Below are positions 25,407-34,183 of a stretch of DNA of 52,482 nucleotides, one piece after another. How positions within the stretch are numbered: position 1 is the first letter of the stretch; each line of letters starts with the position of its first letter. Below the pieces are notes generated by a model, which was given only the letters and a program-made list of their open reading frames with translations, did not search any database and was not told where the DNA came from. Made by a program: the position numbers and the translations under genes. This DNA is from a virus (Duplodnaviria; Caudoviricetes): IMG/VR virus record IMGVR_UViG_3300039159_000058, positions 1 to 52,482 of that record, one strand, 5' to 3'.

Positions 25407-28400
25407 ATGAGCTCATTAGCAAATTTACGAGAGTCTTACCCAGAGCAGACTAAAGATCTAACAGATTCCGATATAGTTTTTGGGTCTGCGAAAATGTTTG
25501 GCGTATCCCCCAAAGAGGTTGCTACGTCACTCGGATTAGATCCAAATGACAGAACTTGGGGCGAAGCAATCGTAGACACAGGGGTGCGAGCACTTAATGC
25601 CGTAGTGGGATCTGCTGGGGCTATTGCCTCGGCTTTTGATCCAAAGGGTAGTGAGGATATAAAAACACTTCAAGGCTACGGCGAAGAGGCTATGTCGCTT
25701 AAGTCTCGCATCGCCAGTGATGAGTTTAATACGGCGCTATCAACTAGTAATCTTGGAACACAAGCTAAAGGTGTTTGGGAATATATAAAGCAAGACCCCG
25801 TGGGTACCGCAGCTGAAGCCATTGGTAATTTTGTTATCCCCGGTGCAGCCATTAAAGGCGTTAAAGCTCTATCTATGGGGGCAAAACTATCTACAAAAGC
25901 CGCAGGAAACGTGGCTCTTGGTGCGGGCGCTGTTGTGGGCGGTGTGATGTCTGGTGGCGACGCTGCGGGGGATGCTTACGAGCGAGTCTTTAAGGCCACA
26001 AATGATGCAGATAAAGCTAATAGTGCAGCCAGATCGGCGCAAGTAATTCCTACTTTTGTCGGAGCAGGTGCGTCCCTTATAGGGCTAGAGAAATATCTGG
26101 CTAAAGGCGTTGGCCGCGCAAAAATAATAGGGACGGGTCTAAAAGAAGGCGTGAGTGAGCTTGTCGATGAGGGCACAAGTAAGTTAGAAGCAAATAGAGC
26201 TGTTGCACCGTATGTGGCGGGCACGGATATTATGGCGGGTGTGTTCGGCTCAGGACTCTACGGCATGGCGCAAGGCGGTGTGGTAGGTTCTACGGGGGCT
26301 GTGGTTAACAATATCAGTGTTGCGAGGGATGAGCGCAATAACGGCATTACGGTCGTAGGATATGTAGATAAAGCTGATAAGGCCGCAGCGCAAGCTATAA
26401 ATGGTACGAGCAATACCGATACGGGACAAACAGGCGGTCAATATACTCCCCCCACATTAGAGCAACAAGCCGATGCGATTGAGGTTAAACGTTTAGAAGC
26501 CAAGCAACTTGCCGCACAAGAACAGCAAAAAGCTAATGCGCAACAAGCACCAGTAGTTGCTGCGCAGCAACAACAAGCTGCACAAGCACAGTCAGTGCAA
26601 ACAGCGCAACAGTTATTTGATCAATTCGGCATGAAACCCGTATTAAACGACGTAGACGGGCAACCCACAGGTAAATTTGTAGTGGGCGAGAAAATGTTTT
26701 TTACCGAAAACGATGCTGTCAATTTCGCTAAAGGCTTGGTTGACGCTGGTAAAGACTTAAATCCCTATCAACAAAGTATGGTGGGAGTCTTATTTGGTGG
26801 TGATACGCTTGCTGCTAAAGCCGGGGATACTGCGAAGGGGATGGTAAGTCGTGCGGTTAAGTTTATGTCCGACAATCAGCTCTCGTCTGCGAAGACTATG
26901 GAAGAGGCTGTAACCCGAATTGATCAAATTATTGAAAACACTGCGCCCAATACAGACCTATCAAGCAGTAAACCTAACGTAGACGCTAGAAGGCTTTTAT
27001 CGCTTGATAAGTTACGCACGTCTATTACCGGTGAGGCTTCTGTTCGTTTGTCGGAGATAGCGGAGCAGCAAAGGCTTGTCGTAGAAAACGAGGTCAAAGC
27101 GAAAGAGGACGCAAAACAAGCGGCTCAAGCGGCAAAAGATAAGAAGGCTGCTGATGCTGCGGCAAAGAAAGCGGGCAAAGGGGCTGCGAAAACATCGACA
27201 GATGTAAAAAGCCAAACAAACACAGCAAGTGCAACAAACACAACAAGTGCAACAGACGCGGCAAGTGCATCTAGCCCAGTGACTAATGTATCTGTTGGAC
27301 AATATTTAGCCGAACAGGCAAATAACGGGGGCGTATCCCCAACAACTGGAGATTCAAATGGACAGCAACAACAGCAAAGTGCTACCGGGGTGGGAACAGT
27401 TCCAGTCCAAAGCGGAGCAAATCAAGACAGCACAAACACAGATGGGGATGTACGACCTACGAGCAATGAACCCATCGGGGCAGGAAGTGTCGGACTTGGA
27501 CCGAATGGCCAGCAAAATGACTCCCGAGGAACAAACGGAGATGAACAACGAACCGTACAACCCGCCAATACCAATGAGCGCAGTACTACTGGGCAAAACA
27601 TTGCGCAGGAAGTAATATCACCCAATAGCCCTAATTTAACGGGACAAGGAGACGTAGTTGGCTCAAGAACCGAAAGCAACACCACAAGTAACGTCCCTAC
27701 GGACACCGGAGGAAAGAGCTCTGTTTCGCCAGAAGTTGGCAGCTCAAATACTGGAGTTGTGGAAGGAAAAAGACCCCGAGGGCGTGCGCCGCGTGGACCG
27801 AACGTATCGACTGTCGCAAGCGATGTTACCGCTGCTACTGAAAATGACGGAAGAAGAAAAGGCCGCCAAGAAACTCCCGCCGAACGAGCTGCCATAGATG
27901 GAGCTGTTGCGCAGAGTCGTGAGTTAAACGGTGCGTTAGAGCGAGTATTTAACAAAGTATTTGTGACCTTTGGCGGTAACTCTGGGATTAAAAACGCTAG
28001 TAAAAAAGTTGATTTCTTTGCGCAGTTTTATCTAAATCCAGATGCTCTAGCGGATACGTCGTTACCGCAAATCGCAATAGACATGGATGTTCCCCTAGGG
28101 ACTATAAAGTCTTGGAGTGCGGAGCTGGCGCAAGATCCCGTCACAGGGCGTAGTGTTTTTGATGCGAAATACGAATCACGTTTGCGTGAGGCTTACGCAG
28201 CGGTTGCTAAAGATCTTAACCTCACAATAGAAGAAATGACTGCTGTTGTTCAGGCCAATGACTCTGTAGCAAAAATGACGAATGAGCTGAGCGAAGCTTT
28301 TGAAGCGCAGCAACTCTTAGACGAGGTAACTGGTTCTGAATCAGGCGCCTTTGCGCGAGAAGCTGTGCAAGAACTCACAGATAAATCCTCTACGAAAGAA

Positions 28401-31400
28401 TCGCAAGAAGCCTTTGCGTATGACGCGCTCAAAGCAACTAATGAGAATAATGACACGGGTTTAACCCTAAGTGACAGCCCAAGTGACACGAGTGTATCGG
28501 AGCAATTCAACACCGGTGAGGGTATTAGTAACAATTACATAAAGTTATTTGAGGGCTTAGAAAACGCTAAGAAAAAGGGCGATGCCACGCAGATAGAGGC
28601 TGCGCAAAAGAAACTAGACGACTTTATGGCAAAGGTCCCTAAGCTTACAAAGGACTCTATTAAGTTTCGTAAAGTTGGGGATCAAACCAACACCAAAGAA
28701 GAATCAGATGGAGCGAGCGAAGCTACGGGTAAAACCACTGTCTCTGAACAGATTAAGGCTAAAGTCAAACAAAAAAATAACGACGCTAAGTCAGGCACTA
28801 AAGCCTTGCCTAATGGGGTTATTAAAACGTCTAAAGAGCAGTACACAGACTTGGTCAAAGACATTGCTCAAGCCCCAGCGTTTGATGCGTTAAGCAATAA
28901 ACAACAGTCCCTAGTTACGGATCTTGCGCAGCGCGGGAAGTTAAACCTTGCGGCCATTAATCGTATCGTGGGGGAGGATTCGGTCCAGCTAAGCATAGCG
29001 CCCAAGGCTAAAGAAACATACATAGCGAATGATCTACGAGCCCAAGTGGTCGCATACATCGGGGTAGATAACAAAGACAAACTTGTCGTTTTACAGAGTG
29101 CCAAGGACATTCCCGCTCGCATAGTAAAACGAGAGCCAAAAGTACTTACCGCTGGGGGGTTTGTTTTTGAGAAACGTGCGTATTTAATTGCGGACAATAT
29201 CGCCCAGGGGCGTGGTATTGCAACATTTATGCACGAAGTCGGAGGCCATATAGGCCTACAACAAATGCTGGGTGATGAGTTCCATAATTTAGTAGACGAA
29301 ATATATGAGTGGAATAAAAGTGATGCTAACTCGCTTGAAGCAAAGTTGGCTCAAGCAGCCATTAGACGTGTAGCGGCTACAGATGTCTCTGGCCTTAAGT
29401 ATGAAAACGAATTGGTTGCGTACTTTATCGAAGAAGCAGTGCTCGCTGGCGTAAAGCCCACACATACGGGTAAAGTTGAACGAGTACTTAAAAAAGTAAT
29501 CAATGCGTTTAAAAAGGCATTATCGGTTCTTGGTATGAACCCGCAGTTCCTGACTGCCAAAGATGTTGTGAATCTGGCCTACGGTGCGGCTCAGATGGAG
29601 CTTAGCAACAAATTAGAAAGCACTAAGGACTCAGACAAAGAGGTGCAATTGTCAGAAAAAGATAACTTAACCCCAGCGCAAGAGAGTCGTATCGACCGCA
29701 ACATGGAGCGAGTACCGGGAAAAGTACGGGATGTGTTCTCAGCCTACTCAAAAGCCATTGCGCGACAAAGTAATAAGTTACGTTTTACGGGTCAGTTAAT
29801 AGAACAAGCTGCAAAGAGAATACCTGCGGCTAAAAGATATCTTGACCTTACGCGGGAGCAAATCGCGATTCGCGCCAAAGCACTTTACGACGTGGAGAAG
29901 ATATCCAATAAGTTTGATGCGTTACCAAAACCCGAACAGCGCGCAGTTAATCGTCTGTTAAAGGAGTCTACTCGAACAGGCAAGTGGGCTTTTGTACCCT
30001 CGTGGGTTCGTGGGGACGACGGAAAACCATCGATTAAAGCTAACGAAAGTCTTAAAGAGCAGTTCGATCTTTTATCGGCTCCGGCGCAACAAACAGTACG
30101 TGACGTGTTCGCAAACGGTTATGTCAGTATGGACAAGATGCGCGATGGTGCTACGCAGATGATTAACAGCATGTACGCCGAGAATATCGAGACCGCTAGG
30201 CGCGCCAACGACACAGAAACAGTAGCTGACTTACAAAAAGAGATGCGCACTCAGTTAGCTGACTTTAACCGGCTCTTTACGGAAAGAGGCCGCAAGCCCT
30301 ACGCGCCACTGCGACGATTCGGAAACCACGTGGTGGTTATGCGCTCCAAAGAGATGTTAGATGCGTTAAACACAGTGGAGACTGCGCAAGACAAAAGCAC
30401 ACCAGAAGATGTCGTTAAAGAGGCTAAAAAGTTTATTCGCGACAACGAAGGTAATGCCGAGCATTACCAACTGCACTTTAGAGAGAGCGGTATTGCAGCG
30501 CAAAGTTTGGCTCGAAGTTTAAAAGATATTGCCGGATCGACAGTGCAGACGTTTACGCGAGACCAAGCAGCCAAGGAGCTCTATACATCGGCAGATATTC
30601 ATGGGCTTATGTATCGATTACGTAAAAAATCAGCCGACGTGGTTGAAGGATCTACGGACCCTAAAACTGGGCGCGAGCTTGGCAACTTGTTAACCGAGCT
30701 GCATTTAACGCTTTTGTCAGAGCAAAACGCAAGACACGCCGAACATCGGCGGGTAGAAGGTGGTGTTGAGGGCGCGGAAGATAACATGATGCGTGCGTTT
30801 CATTCTCACGGAATGTCCACAGCGTCTGTAATCGCAGGGATGCACAAAAGTAAAGACATCGTTAACGCTCTTGAGCAGTTTGAAAAAGCCGCCAATGACC
30901 GAACCAACCCTAACAGGGCTCAGGACACAGCGCTCTATAACGAGGTAGCAGCTCGTTACGCGGTCGGACTGGATACAAATGATTCTGTGATTACCGATAC
31001 GGTACTAAAGTACAACTCTGCGATGATGCTTTTGCTTAAGCCCACGTATTACTTGCAGAACTTAATGCAGCCCTGGTCAATGACGTTACCCGTGTTGGCA
31101 GGTCGTTTTGGGCTACGTGCTGCGAAAGCTCTAGGGGCTGCGCAAACAGAAATTAGTGCCGTTATGTCCGGGGAGCGGTTAACCCTAGATACTATAGAAA
31201 AACTACCCCACGATGTACGTGGCGCGGTTAAAGACTTACTTGACTCGGGTCGCTTAAGCATCTCGCTTGACCAAGATATGGGTAATAGGCTGCGAGGGGC
31301 AAACGCTGGGGACAAAGTAATTACTAAGCTCCAAGGTATTGTCGAACGTGTAGAGGGTTTTAACCGAGTTAGCACAGCTATAGCTGCCTACCGTATGGCG

Positions 31401-32504
31401 GTTCTTGCGGGGGACTCTCACGTTAAGGCTGTTAATTACGCAGGAAACATTATTTACGATACACACGGAGACTACTCCGGGGCTAACGCTCCACGTCTTA
31501 TGCGCTCACAAGTAGGTCGAGTGCTTACACAGTTCCGTAAATTTCAGCTTATTCAAATTGGATTACTCGCTAAGCTTGGGCGTGAGTCGTTTCTAGACGG
31601 CTCACTTGACGCGGATGAGAAGTTAATTGCCCGTAAAGCGCTTGGGTATACCTTGTCTACTGCGTTCGCCATGGGCGGGCTATATGCGCTTCCTGGGGTT
31701 ACTGCTGCGATGTGGATACTAGGTAAAGTGTTTGGGAGCGCCGATGAGCCTCAGGACCCAGAAGCCCAAGAAGCACGGTTACGTAAAAAGATAGGAAACC
31801 CTGGCGTAGCTGATATTTTATTGCGCGGGGCTTCACGCTCAGTTCTTGGGATGCAAGACGGGCAAGCCTTAGGACTGGCTGATTGGAGCGGCATGTTAAG
31901 TCTCTTGCCGTACACCAAAATAGAAACCGCAGATCGTTCGACGTACCAGAACATATTGACTGGTCTGTCAGGCGCGGCCATAGGTGGTACGGGGCTAAAA
32001 ATGTTTGAGTCTATGGGTAAATTTGCTGAGGGCGATATTGCGGGTGGACTCGCTAAAGCTCTCCCCTCAGGTGTGGCCAATATAGTTAAAGCTATGCAAC
32101 TTGCAGAAAAAGGTGTCACACGTACTTCTGGGACTCAAATACTTAGCCCTGATGACATTTCTGGGTTCACAGTTTTCTTAGCCGGTTTGGGGGTTAAGAC
32201 GGGCGAGGTAGTGGACAAAGAGTTTACAAACCGTGTGGTTAACACCTACGAAGCGTTCTACAAAAATGAGTCGCAAATGATCACTAAAGATTACTCCGAA
32301 GCTTGGGAGAAAGGTGACTCAAAAGCTATGCAAGAAGCTCGAGAGCGTTGGAGCGAACTTAATGACTCCAGAAAAAATAATGGGTTCACACCACAGCCGT
32401 TTTCAACACTTATTAAATCGCCACTAGGTAAGCGTAAATTTGAAAACAAACTTAAAGGTCAGTTGTCAAACACGGGTAATCTTTTAACAGGAAAAGGGGA
32501 GTAA
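25407..32504 (+). CDS. Giant internal virion (polyvalent) protein with metallopeptidase-like motif and PLxRFG domain
   Basis: 2365 aa; Gly/Ala-rich N-terminus, FMHEVGGHIGL...ENELVA, YAPLRRFG. Confidence 0.85.
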   Translation: MSSLANLRESYPEQTKDLTDSDIVFGSAKMFGVSPKEVATSLGLDPNDRTWGEAIVDTGVRALNAVVGSAGAIASAFDPKGSEDIKTLQGYGEEAMSLKSRIASDEFNTALSTSNLGTQAKGVWEYIKQDPVGTAAEAIGNFVIPGAAIKGVKALSMGAKLSTKAAGNVALGAGAVVGGVMSGGDAAGDAYERVFKATNDADKANSAARSAQVIPTFVGAGASLIGLEKYLAKGVGRAKIIGTGLKEGVSELVDEGTSKLEANRAVAPYVAGTDIMAGVFGSGLYGMAQGGVVGSTGAVVNNISVARDERNNGITVVGYVDKADKAAAQAINGTSNTDTGQTGGQYTPPTLEQQADAIEVKRLEAKQLAAQEQQKANAQQAPVVAAQQQQAAQAQSVQTAQQLFDQFGMKPVLNDVDGQPTGKFVVGEKMFFTENDAVNFAKGLVDAGKDLNPYQQSMVGVLFGGDTLAAKAGDTAKGMVSRAVKFMSDNQLSSAKTMEEAVTRIDQIIENTAPNTDLSSSKPNVDARRLLSLDKLRTSITGEASVRLSEIAEQQRLVVENEVKAKEDAKQAAQAAKDKKAADAAAKKAGKGAAKTSTDVKSQTNTASATNTTSATDAASASSPVTNVSVGQYLAEQANNGGVSPTTGDSNGQQQQQSATGVGTVPVQSGANQDSTNTDGDVRPTSNEPIGAGSVGLGPNGQQNDSRGTNGDEQRTVQPANTNERSTTGQNIAQEVISPNSPNLTGQGDVVGSRTESNTTSNVPTDTGGKSSVSPEVGSSNTGVVEGKRPRGRAPRGPNVSTVASDVTAATENDGRRKGRQETPAERAAIDGAVAQSRELNGALERVFNKVFVTFGGNSGIKNASKKVDFFAQFYLNPDALADTSLPQIAIDMDVPLGTIKSWSAELAQDPVTGRSVFDAKYESRLREAYAAVAKDLNLTIEEMTAVVQANDSVAKMTNELSEAFEAQQLLDEVTGSESGAFAREAVQELTDKSSTKESQEAFAYDALKATNENNDTGLTLSDSPSDTSVSEQFNTGEGISNNYIKLFEGLENAKKKGDATQIEAAQKKLDDFMAKVPKLTKDSIKFRKVGDQTNTKEESDGASEATGKTTVSEQIKAKVKQKNNDAKSGTKALPNGVIKTSKEQYTDLVKDIAQAPAFDALSNKQQSLVTDLAQRGKLNLAAINRIVGEDSVQLSIAPKAKETYIANDLRAQVVAYIGVDNKDKLVVLQSAKDIPARIVKREPKVLTAGGFVFEKRAYLIADNIAQGRGIATFMHEVGGHIGLQQMLGDEFHNLVDEIYEWNKSDANSLEAKLAQAAIRRVAATDVSGLKYENELVAYFIEEAVLAGVKPTHTGKVERVLKKVINAFKKALSVLGMNPQFLTAKDVVNLAYGAAQMELSNKLESTKDSDKEVQLSEKDNLTPAQESRIDRNMERVPGKVRDVFSAYSKAIARQSNKLRFTGQLIEQAAKRIPAAKRYLDLTREQIAIRAKALYDVEKISNKFDALPKPEQRAVNRLLKESTRTGKWAFVPSWVRGDDGKPSIKANESLKEQFDLLSAPAQQTVRDVFANGYVSMDKMRDGATQMINSMYAENIETARRANDTETVADLQKEMRTQLADFNRLFTERGRKPYAPLRRFGNHVVVMRSKEMLDALNTVETAQDKSTPEDVVKEAKKFIRDNEGNAEHYQLHFRESGIAAQSLARSLKDIAGSTVQTFTRDQAAKELYTSADIHGLMYRLRKKSADVVEGSTDPKTGRELGNLLTELHLTLLSEQNARHAEHRRVEGGVEGAEDNMMRAFHSHGMSTASVIAGMHKSKDIVNALEQFEKAANDRTNPNRAQDTALYNEVAARYAVGLDTNDSVITDTVLKYNSAMMLLLKPTYYLQNLMQPWSMTLPVLAGRFGLRAAKALGAAQTEISAVMSGERLTLDTIEKLPHDVRGAVKDLLDSGRLSISLDQDMGNRLRGANAGDKVITKLQGIVERVEGFNRVSTAIAAYRMAVLAGDSHVKAVNYAGNIIYDTHGDYSGANAPRLMRSQVGRVLTQFRKFQLIQIGLLAKLGRESFLDGSLDADEKLIARKALGYTLSTAFAMGGLYALPGVTAAMWILGKVFGSADEPQDPEAQEARLRKKIGNPGVADILLRGASRSVLGMQDGQALGLADWSGMLSLLPYTKIETADRSTYQNILTGLSGAAIGGTGLKMFESMGKFAEGDIAGGLAKALPSGVANIVKAMQLAEKGVTRTSGTQILSPDDISGFTVFLAGLGVKTGEVVDKEFTNRVVNTYEAFYKNESQMITKDYSEAWEKGDSKAMQEARERWSELNDSRKNNGFTPQPFSTLIKSPLGKRKFENKLKGQLSNTGNLLTGKGE
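27216..27269 (+). repeat. 18-bp coding tandem repeat x3 (TNTASA/TNTTSA/TDAASA)
   Basis: ACAAACACAGCAAGTGCA, ACAAACACAACAAGTGCA, ACAGACGCGGCAAGTGCA. Confidence 0.85.
27358..27615 (+). CDS. Candidate overprinted gene 1 nested in +1 frame of the giant protein
   Basis: GGAG at 27348-27351, ATG 6 nt later; 85 aa. Confidence 0.5.
   Translation: MDSNNSKVLPGWEQFQSKAEQIKTAQTQMGMYDLRAMNPSGQEVSDLDRMASKMTPEEQTEMNNEPYNPPIPMSAVLLGKTLRRK
27658..27897 (+). CDS. Candidate overprinted gene 2 nested in +1 frame of the giant protein
   Basis: AAGGAG at 27646-27651, TTG 6 nt later; 79 aa amphipathic helical. Confidence 0.5.
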   Translation: MAQEPKATPQVTSLRTPEERALFRQKLAAQILELWKEKDPEGVRRVDRTYRLSQAMLPLLLKMTEEEKAAKKLPPNELP

Positions 32505-33166: not shown

Positions 33167-34183
33167 ATGGCGTACTTAGAGAAATTAAAAAACGGTAGAA
33201 TCCGGGTGCAAATACGTGGCGCCGGGAAGCCCCAAATTAGCAAAACTTTTACCTCAAAAAATGAAGCTGACGCGTGGGTAAAATACATCGAAATAGAGGG
33301 CGGAGATTCTCTACTTTATAACCACAAAAAAAATACCGTAGGGGATTTATTTACCCGGTATATGTTTAAGGTTAGTGTTAACAAAAAGAGTGGTCGTTCT
33401 GAGATTATTCGGATCATGAAAATGATCCGTGAAGTGGACTTTATGCGGCTTCCATTGACCAAATTAAGTCACATACATTTACGGGAATGGCGCGATCAGC
33501 GAGTCACTGAAGTAAGCGATTCGTCCACCCGACGAGAGTTCAATACTATCAGTGCAGTTATCAATCACTCGATAAAAGAATGGGACGTTCCGCTCTCCCT
33601 GGATATGACAAAAAAGGTCAGAAGGCCCATCGAACACAAACCCAGAAGTCGGAATGTGTCACAAAAAGAAATTGCATTGCTGTGGGAAAATACCCCGGAA
33701 ATTGGCCGAGGTGTAGCAGGTTACGTTGCCGCGATATTTGAGTTTTGTTGCGAAACGGCCATGCGAAAAGGTGAGGCTTTGGCGCTCACTTGGGATGATA
33801 TTAAGACTGGAGACAACGGCACAACGTGGGCAATTATTCGTGAATCCAAAAACGGAACCAGTAGATTTGTCCCTTTTACGAGCCGTGCTAAGGAAATAAT
33901 TGCTAAGATTCCCTTAAAAGAACCAAGGGTTTTCCCTATTACTTCGGGAGCCCTTGATCCTGTGTTTAGAGAGTTAGCTAGGAAGCTTGGAATAGAAAAT
34001 TTACACTTCCACGATAGTCGGCATCAAGCGACCCTTATGCTTTCGAAGAAGTTTTCTCCGCTTGAGCTTGCAAAAGTGACCGGGCATAAGTCCCTGGATG
34101 TTTTATTGAACGTATACTATCAGCCGACTGGTGACGATTTAGCTCAAACACTTGCGTCTTCTGTCCTTGAGCCAACACCTTAG
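33167..34183 (+). CDS. int: Tyrosine recombinase (phage integrase)
   Basis: TAMRKGE, SKNG, FHDSRH, TGH, VYY catalytic residues. Confidence 0.95.
   Translation: MAYLEKLKNGRIRVQIRGAGKPQISKTFTSKNEADAWVKYIEIEGGDSLLYNHKKNTVGDLFTRYMFKVSVNKKSGRSEIIRIMKMIREVDFMRLPLTKLSHIHLREWRDQRVTEVSDSSTRREFNTISAVINHSIKEWDVPLSLDMTKKVRRPIEHKPRSRNVSQKEIALLWENTPEIGRGVAGYVAAIFEFCCETAMRKGEALALTWDDIKTGDNGTTWAIIRESKNGTSRFVPFTSRAKEIIAKIPLKEPRVFPITSGALDPVFRELARKLGIENLHFHDSRHQATLMLSKKFSPLELAKVTGHKSLDVLLNVYYQPTGDDLAQTLASSVLEPTP

Follow-up and report, generated by a model that had tools for sequence, protein, structure and literature searches.

Several genes of bacteriophages are known to lie wholly inside other genes. In phage lambda, Rz1 is embedded in Rz, the inner gene encoding a lipoprotein with a signal sequence and a lipobox and the host gene its functional partner in lysis, and in phiX174 gene B is overprinted on A and gene E on D. 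Long same-strand genes that are fully nested are thought to be rare in phages with double-stranded DNA (dsDNA), and annotation pipelines discard them. Here we describe a candidate of this kind in a member of the Caudoviricetes, represented by a stretch of 52,482 nucleotides (nt) that covers positions 1–52,482 of the IMG/VR record IMGVR_UViG_3300039159_000058 (hereafter the window): an open reading frame (ORF) of 85 amino acids (aa), ORF1, lies in the +1 frame of the gene for a giant virion protein of 2365 aa, within the part that encodes a low-complexity linker. On the basis of comparison with relatives, we consider ORF1 to be a genuine protein-coding gene, and the stretch to be dual-coding, with a probability of roughly 0.85. 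Like Rz1, ORF1 is a small gene that sits wholly inside a larger gene on the same strand, in the +1 frame and with its own start, and that standard gene callers miss; unlike Rz1, it has neither a hydrophobic N-terminus nor a membrane segment, and its host encodes a giant virion protein.

An initial annotation, made from the letters of the window, had read two consecutive overprinted ORFs (85 and 79 aa) in the linker of the 2365-aa ORF, and as a reading of the sequence this holds in every respect. The coordinates, the frame and the starts are as described (Table 1), each start is preceded at a distance of 6 nt by a Shine–Dalgarno (SD) sequence (GGAG ahead of the ATG of ORF1 and AAGGAG ahead of the TTG of the second candidate cistron, ORF2), the two ORFs are 42 nt apart (27616–27657, a spacer that contains two +1 stops) and the host-frame product over the stretch is indeed of low complexity, being rich in G, S, T, N and Q. 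The predicted protein of ORF1 has a mass of 9.6 kDa and a pI of 5.3, and that of ORF2 a pI of 9.5.

Taken by itself, the window does not distinguish the ORF pair from a by-product of composition, as neither the ORF length nor the SD sequences are significant. Under a null model in which the host protein was held fixed and synonymous codons were redrawn from the codon usage of the window over a 251-codon block of the linker, the number of +1 stops was ordinary (7 observed versus 8.1 expected, P(≤7) = 0.41), a longest +1 open run of at least 101 codons arose with P = 0.17 and a second run of at least 79 codons with P = 0.024. A stop in the +1 frame cannot arise without a T at host codon position 2, where T accounts for only 12% of the bases, and +1 stops are therefore few in the linker. 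SD-like 4-mers are also frequent there (20 per kb versus 7.9 per kb in the whole window, that is, 2.5-fold), and such a 4-mer lies at a spacer of 4–10 nt ahead of 4 of the 26 start codons that the linker has in the +1 frame. An antisense ORF (27422–27955, minus strand; 177 aa, with 201 codons from stop to stop) lies across ORF1 as well as ORF2; the A-rich, T-poor composition would lead one to expect it, and we found no reason to call it a gene. Single-genome signals were insufficient here, and only the comparison with relatives told a real gene from noise.

Relatives were found mainly through the small peptide. A blastn search of the linker against GenBank phages gave no match, searches of viral contigs with the giant protein and with its upstream neighbour found no relative, and for the giant protein no close relative turned up among GenBank phages or in IMG/VR. 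Protein databases contained a few relatives of the giant protein at about 40–50% identity over the whole protein and 38–41% over a query that flanks the linker (P0005, P0009 and P0010), the DNA of which could be located neither in viral nor in metagenome contigs. A homology search of both small peptides, as suggested in the initial annotation, succeeded for one of them: the ORF1 peptide (P0002) has three database homologues of 81–90 aa with the same start (E values of 5e-16 to 3e-12), whereas none was found for ORF2. With an alignment of these homologues as the query, 27 IMG/VR loci were retrieved, and in all 27 the ORF1 homologue is nested within a very long ORF, in its +1 frame (2250–3096 codons where the long ORF is uncut by the end of the locus). 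A second set of 22 loci was drawn only by host-frame C-terminal motifs of the giant protein; four of these are cut short, and of the 18 with a contig that extends to the region, 15 have ORF1. Complete ORF1 loci number 40 with the window; they reduce to 26 distinct sequences, which fall into 11 clusters when grouped at ≥85% nt identity. The ORF1 of the window is the most divergent member, with 53–59% nt identity to the other distinct sequences. Searches by tblastn of 50,697 GenBank phage records with ORF1, ORF2 and the ORF1 of a relative as queries gave either nothing below E = 3 or no match.

The features that define ORF1 are kept throughout this set. All 26 distinct sequences have the ATG start and the TAA stop at lengths of 78–86 aa, GGAG precedes the start at a spacer of 6 nt in 25 of them (as AAGGAG in 24), and not a single +1 stop falls within ORF1 where the host protein sequences would lead one to expect 39.8. 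Over the same bases, the protein read in the +1 frame is better conserved than that read in the host frame, with a mean pairwise identity of 0.669 versus 0.511 (the +1 value being higher in 318 of 325 pairs); the difference persists when the window is compared with the other sequences (0.453 versus 0.304) and in the subset drawn by host motifs (0.793 versus 0.641, higher in 75 of 78 pairs). Nucleotide differences that are silent in the +1 frame and replace a host residue occur at 1.78 times their possible share, and those of the reverse class at 0.71 times. Third-position diversity of the host frame, measured on the host codon alignment, is 0.51–0.68 upstream of ORF1, 0.27 in the bin that contains the SD and the ATG, 0.12–0.22 within ORF1 (its last bin reaching 0.33) and 0.57–0.70 further downstream. 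The reduced synonymous variation in relatives that the initial annotation had proposed to look for, together with a preserved frame and SD, is thereby seen for ORF1, and its claim of an overprinted gene missed by annotation is borne out for this ORF by the conserved start, SD, stop, length and protein.

Within ORF1, variability follows the codon phases of the +1 frame (second positions vary less than first and first less than third), so that the most variable positions are the wobble positions of the +1 frame and the least variable those of the host frame; this three-base periodicity points to a protein rather than to a signal in RNA or DNA. Codon usage over ORF1 resembles that of local genes most closely in the +1 frame (0.64), which fits best in 23 of the 26 sequences; the host frame, at 0.55, is close to the non-coding +2 frame that served as control (0.53). 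As the +1 frame is both better conserved and gene-like, sequence-specific selection falls mainly on the small protein. The host-frame product over ORF1 consists of 22% Gly and lacks F, Y, W, C and H. It contains no stop in any of the 26 sequences, although about 145 would be expected were only the +1 protein kept, and the giant ORF is therefore actively held open across ORF1. With at least 11 diverged lineages of uncultivated phages represented, the comparative evidence for ORF1 is as strong as sequence alone gives.

Several points weigh against reading ORF1 as a gene. The first set of 27 loci was drawn by the +1 peptide itself and is biased, which the host-motif set offsets only partly; the sequences are related, so that neither the pair counts nor the sequence counts given above are independent; one lineage (L050, L052 and L055) has a complete giant ORF without ORF1; and there is no family, fold or ESM Atlas lead for the ORF1 product, the AlphaFold2 model of which is poor (pLDDT 61 and pTM 0.26, from a 26-row alignment).

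ORF2 has to be judged separately. The initial annotation had taken the two ORFs for a tandem mini-operon, and this layout is echoed in relatives, of which 23 of the 25 distinct sequences have a second +1 ORF (43–69 aa) that begins 0, 12 or 15 nt past ORF1; the ORF2 of the window, however, has no detectable likeness to those ORFs. Where the gap is 12–15 nt, GGAG stands ahead of the second ORF at a spacer of 6 nt in 14 of 15 cases, and where it is 0 the start codon of the second ORF comes immediately after the TAA of ORF1. Four loci have a second stop immediately after this TAA and their next ATG 12 nt past it. Counted in a fixed window after the ORF1 stop (a count within the ORFs themselves would be circular, as these were chosen as open), relatives have 5 +1 stops versus 16.3 expected, and the wobble diversity of the host frame over the second ORF is 0.335 versus 0.48 and 0.53 in the flanks (16 sequences). 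By these measures the constraint on the second ORF of relatives is weaker than that on ORF1. It also differs between subgroups: in the largest, the second-ORF protein is less conserved than the host frame (identity of 0.567 versus 0.644), which counts against ORF2, and in a small subgroup of 4 relatives it is more conserved (0.361 in the +1 frame versus 0.195 in the host frame). The second cistron of relatives (L026:10256-10435, L037:10235-10405, L036:10262-10405 and others) is very variable between subgroups, with a proline-rich start and then a short amphipathic stretch being kept.

We put it at about even odds that ORF1 is real and ORF2 a product of chance, the lineage of the window having lost the second cistron or never had it. 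ORF2 has no detectable similarity to the second ORF of relatives (profile scores were no better than those of shuffles, and the best of 19 pairwise tests stood at 13 of 500 shuffles), it has no homologue in any database searched, and over its length the host-frame proteins of the four closest relatives fail to align. Its TTG is a weak start and counts against it, the gap of 42 nt with two +1 stops is at odds with the 0–15 nt of relatives, and a second run of this length does arise in the synonymous redraws at the frequency given above. On the other side, no stop is seen in ORF2 where 2.4 would be expected given the host protein (P(stop-free) = 0.052), and AAGGAG stands at the 6-nt spacing of the family. 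Of the relatives with DNA, L048 is the nearest (48% identical in the giant protein), and it bears on this only in part, as the end of its contig cuts the linker (L048:1-133), leaving ORF1 unreadable and covering only the last 43 codons of ORF2; over these the alignment is not significant (390 of 2000 shuffles), yet the +1 frame is open and stops within 3–4 codons of the host-frame position at which ORF2 stops. It falls a little short of an even chance, in our estimate, that ORF2 is a real, fast-evolving second cistron; otherwise it would be a compositional ORF. As the positional counterpart of the second ORF of relatives it is a candidate only, and unproven. A third long +1 open stretch of the window (28618–28893, 91 codons, with a TTG ORF of 72 aa at 28675–28893) lies in a second low-complexity part of the giant gene.

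For ORF1 itself, the alternatives are far less probable than a translated gene. The +1 frame might instead be the tail of a programmed +1 frameshift product, that is, a shortened N-terminal form of the giant protein that ends in the ORF1 segment. SD-like sequences can stimulate frameshifting, as in prfB, and a nearby shift is geometrically possible, as the +1 frame is open for 4–61 codons upstream of the ATG. Such a product would, however, leave the ATG in 26 of 26 sequences and the GGAG at an initiation-type spacer of 6 nt in 25 of 26 unexplained, only 4–5 codons are open upstream in three sequences, the synonymous conservation begins at the bin of the SD and ATG and no earlier, and no shift site was seen, though none was searched for. 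We regard frameshifting as improbable.

A still smaller chance attaches to the conserved element being a nucleic-acid signal (RNA structure, or a packaging or regulatory site) and not a protein. The reduced synonymous change in the host frame would, by itself, fit such a signal; the three-base periodicity of the +1 frame, the conservation of start, stop and SD, the enrichment of +1-silent changes and the gene-like +1 codon usage would not, and Rfam gave nothing at E ≤ 1 at the ORF1 stretch. Least probable of all is that both ORFs are by-products of composition, a disordered linker being poor in hydrophobic residues and so in T at codon position 2 and in +1 stops, and purine-rich Gly and Glu codons giving SD-like words: this agrees with the ordinary stop count, run length, antisense opening and abundance of SD-like words in the window and, for ORF2 alone, with the stop-free probability and the lack of homologues found, but it is excluded for ORF1 by the start, SD, stop and protein kept in 26 sequences and by the collapse of host synonymous diversity, and is weakened for ORF2 by the conserved second-cistron slot of relatives.

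If ORF1 is a translated gene, its expression can be envisioned as follows. Its message would be the late structural mRNA that carries the giant gene, given that a sigma-70 promoter scan found 0 sites in 26900–28200 (no promoter-like site that would permit expression in a lysogen) and that the synonymous conservation begins only at the SD. Ribosomes would then initiate internally at the conserved SD, with its spacer of 6 nt, and the ATG, and a second cistron may be translated by coupling or re-initiation after ORF1, for which the gap of 0–15 nt in relatives would fit. The giant ORF, for its part, would have to stay open at the linker to keep its N- and C-terminal parts joined in a single polypeptide, and the giant protein may need only an open, flexible connection here, for which a glycine-rich spacer would serve.

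What the small protein does can be narrowed down to some extent. The initial annotation had named, as possibilities, chaperones or inhibitors of the ejected polyvalent protein and exclusion factors expressed in a lysogen. The family has two invariant blocks, PGWE.. and NPS.QE.S..DR, together with a short hydrophobic patch that precedes a basic tail. The maximum hydropathy over 19 residues is −0.01 for ORF1 and 0.20 for ORF2 and does not exceed 0.71 across the 26 ORF1 homologues; by these 19-residue windows none of the 26 has a membrane segment, and the product is predicted to be soluble and, in the window, acidic. A role as a holin, suggested by the best PHROG match (phrog_11087, E = 0.011, below significance), is ruled out by the lack of a membrane segment. 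The same lack, together with a polar instead of a hydrophobic N-terminus, led us to reject an Rz1-type o-spanin. Pfam gave no match for ORF1, ORF2 or the embedded ORFs of relatives, PHROG no convincing match and the ESM Atlas no usable match for ORF1 or ORF2, and modelling ORF1 and ORF2 as a complex yielded no answer (score of 0.00). Tentatively, and with odds clearly below even, we suggest that the ORF1 product may be a small partner of the virion or ejection module, accessory to it or packaged along with it, that is made together with the giant protein, a guess prompted only by the fixed position inside the giant gene and the basic tail.

The host of ORF1 is, by its C-terminal family profile, a PLxRFG/DarB-like giant virion protein. 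Residues 1396–2327 match phrog_10089 ('DarB-like antirestriction', E = 4e-39, PHROG profile search), the C-terminal ~950 residues have tblastn matches at 21–27% identity in 34 GenBank phage records that are annotated as PLxRFG or DarB-like, and PLRRFG, the motif that gives the PLxRFG family its name, is present in the translation. On the 5′ side of the giant gene lie genes for the terminase, portal or adaptor, major head protein, tail fibres, an internal virion protein and a virion structural protein, and the giant gene is the final gene of this structural module. As an integrase gene adjoins it on the 3′ side, the phage is probably temperate.

Table 1. Positions in the window of the nested ORFs, their SD sequences, the host gene and its surroundings.
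Feature	Position	Strand	Remarks
ORF1, +1 frame of the giant ORF	27358..27615	+	85 aa; ATG start, TAA stop
SD core of ORF1	27348..27351	+	GGAG, 6 nt ahead of the ATG
ORF2, candidate second +1 cistron	27658..27897	+	79 aa; TTG start, TAG stop
SD of ORF2	27646..27651	+	AAGGAG, 6 nt ahead of the TTG
Low-complexity, T-poor linker of the giant protein	27150..27900	+	residues ~582–832; AT skew 0.4–0.5; T at codon position 2 = 0.12
Host gene, giant virion protein	25407..32504	+	2365 aa; ORF and PHROG/tblastn C-terminal matches
Integrase gene, directly 3′ of the giant gene	33167-34183		phrog_1, E = 2e-48

Two further observations concern the giant protein. Its database copy (P0004) has 2336 aa, 29 residues less than the longest ORF (the difference being 25407–25493 of the window), so that the start of this copy must have been set at an ATG further along. 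Midway along the protein, the HExxH motif HEVGGH (residues 1276–1281, window 29232–29249), of which H1276, E1277 and H1281 do not vary among the four closest giant proteins, may point to a domain that resembles zinc metallopeptidases; a Pfam scan made no call for a domain at this motif.

Relatives carry up to three embedded genes within one giant gene. In the same giant ORF, some 1 kb beyond ORF1 on its downstream side, they have another +1-frame gene, for a protein of ~50 aa with a lysine- and proline-rich tail; it is here called the MPFKS gene, after the residues with which its protein starts. Its 22 distinct sequences are all +1-nested and all start with ATG (for example, L026:11384-11539, L031:11114-11269 and L042:10994-11164), and its protein identity is 0.709 versus 0.531 for the host frame, with the +1 value higher in 229 of 231 pairs. 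It also occurs in the lineage without ORF1 (L050, L052 and L055). The window was not found to carry it at E ≤ 0.01, and the TTG ORF at 28675–28893 has no similarity to it. Among described small phage proteins, those of phrog_1375, a family of unknown function, show a weak likeness (E = 5e-4, 5e-4 and 0.03). The sole match of the peptide among GenBank phages is likewise weak (phage C75C1, L073:6001-6072, 24 residues, E = 9e-3); it sits in the gap between two annotated small hypothetical genes of a structural module, touching the edge of both, and could be a free-standing relative of the MPFKS gene.

The embedded family offers a clean natural case for the study of two frames that share one sequence. 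It shows that real genes can be concealed in the low-complexity linkers of giant proteins, and it adds a concrete family of hidden small phage proteins tied to the virion and ejection module. No report of genes nested in giant virion proteins was found in the titles and abstract openings of the open-access papers searched, and what appears to be new here is a family of small proteins encoded within the linker of PLxRFG/DarB-like giant proteins across many uncultivated phages. Going further, it is possible, although we hold it to be unlikely, that the linkers of such proteins did not begin as spacers that later gained ORFs but are former small-gene regions that are now read through by the giant ORF in another frame. 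The small genes (ORF1, the second cistron and the MPFKS gene of relatives) would then be the primary coding layer, as their stronger constraint, gene-like codon usage and ordinary composition would have it, and the linker merely an overprinted frame that is kept open. If this were true, giant phage proteins would be fusions put together across a small-gene operon whose genes keep working within them, and more hidden genes would be predicted in the linkers of other giant phage proteins.

The described systems resemble this locus in different parts. The host gene is like those of the PLxRFG/DarB-like proteins of phages LASTA, Skulduggery, PBC5 and Atu_ph08 over its C-terminal ~950 residues, but the likeness is limited to this part and to 21–27% identity, and tblastn found no ORF1 homologue among the GenBank phage records. 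Overprinting is well reviewed for viruses, RNA viruses included (PMC8227390, PMC3494269). With the cases in phiX174 and in RNA viruses the locus shares dual coding, an adaptive conflict between frames and one product that is a disordered, low-complexity sequence. Those cases belong to tiny genomes pressed for size, whereas ORF1 lies in a dsDNA phage of more than 52 kb that is probably temperate; here, moreover, the embedded protein is of ordinary composition and the host frame is the one of low complexity, which suggests that the linker, and not the small gene, is the younger reading. A further difference sets the locus apart from Rz1 and Rz: here, the embedded frame is more constrained than the frame of its host.

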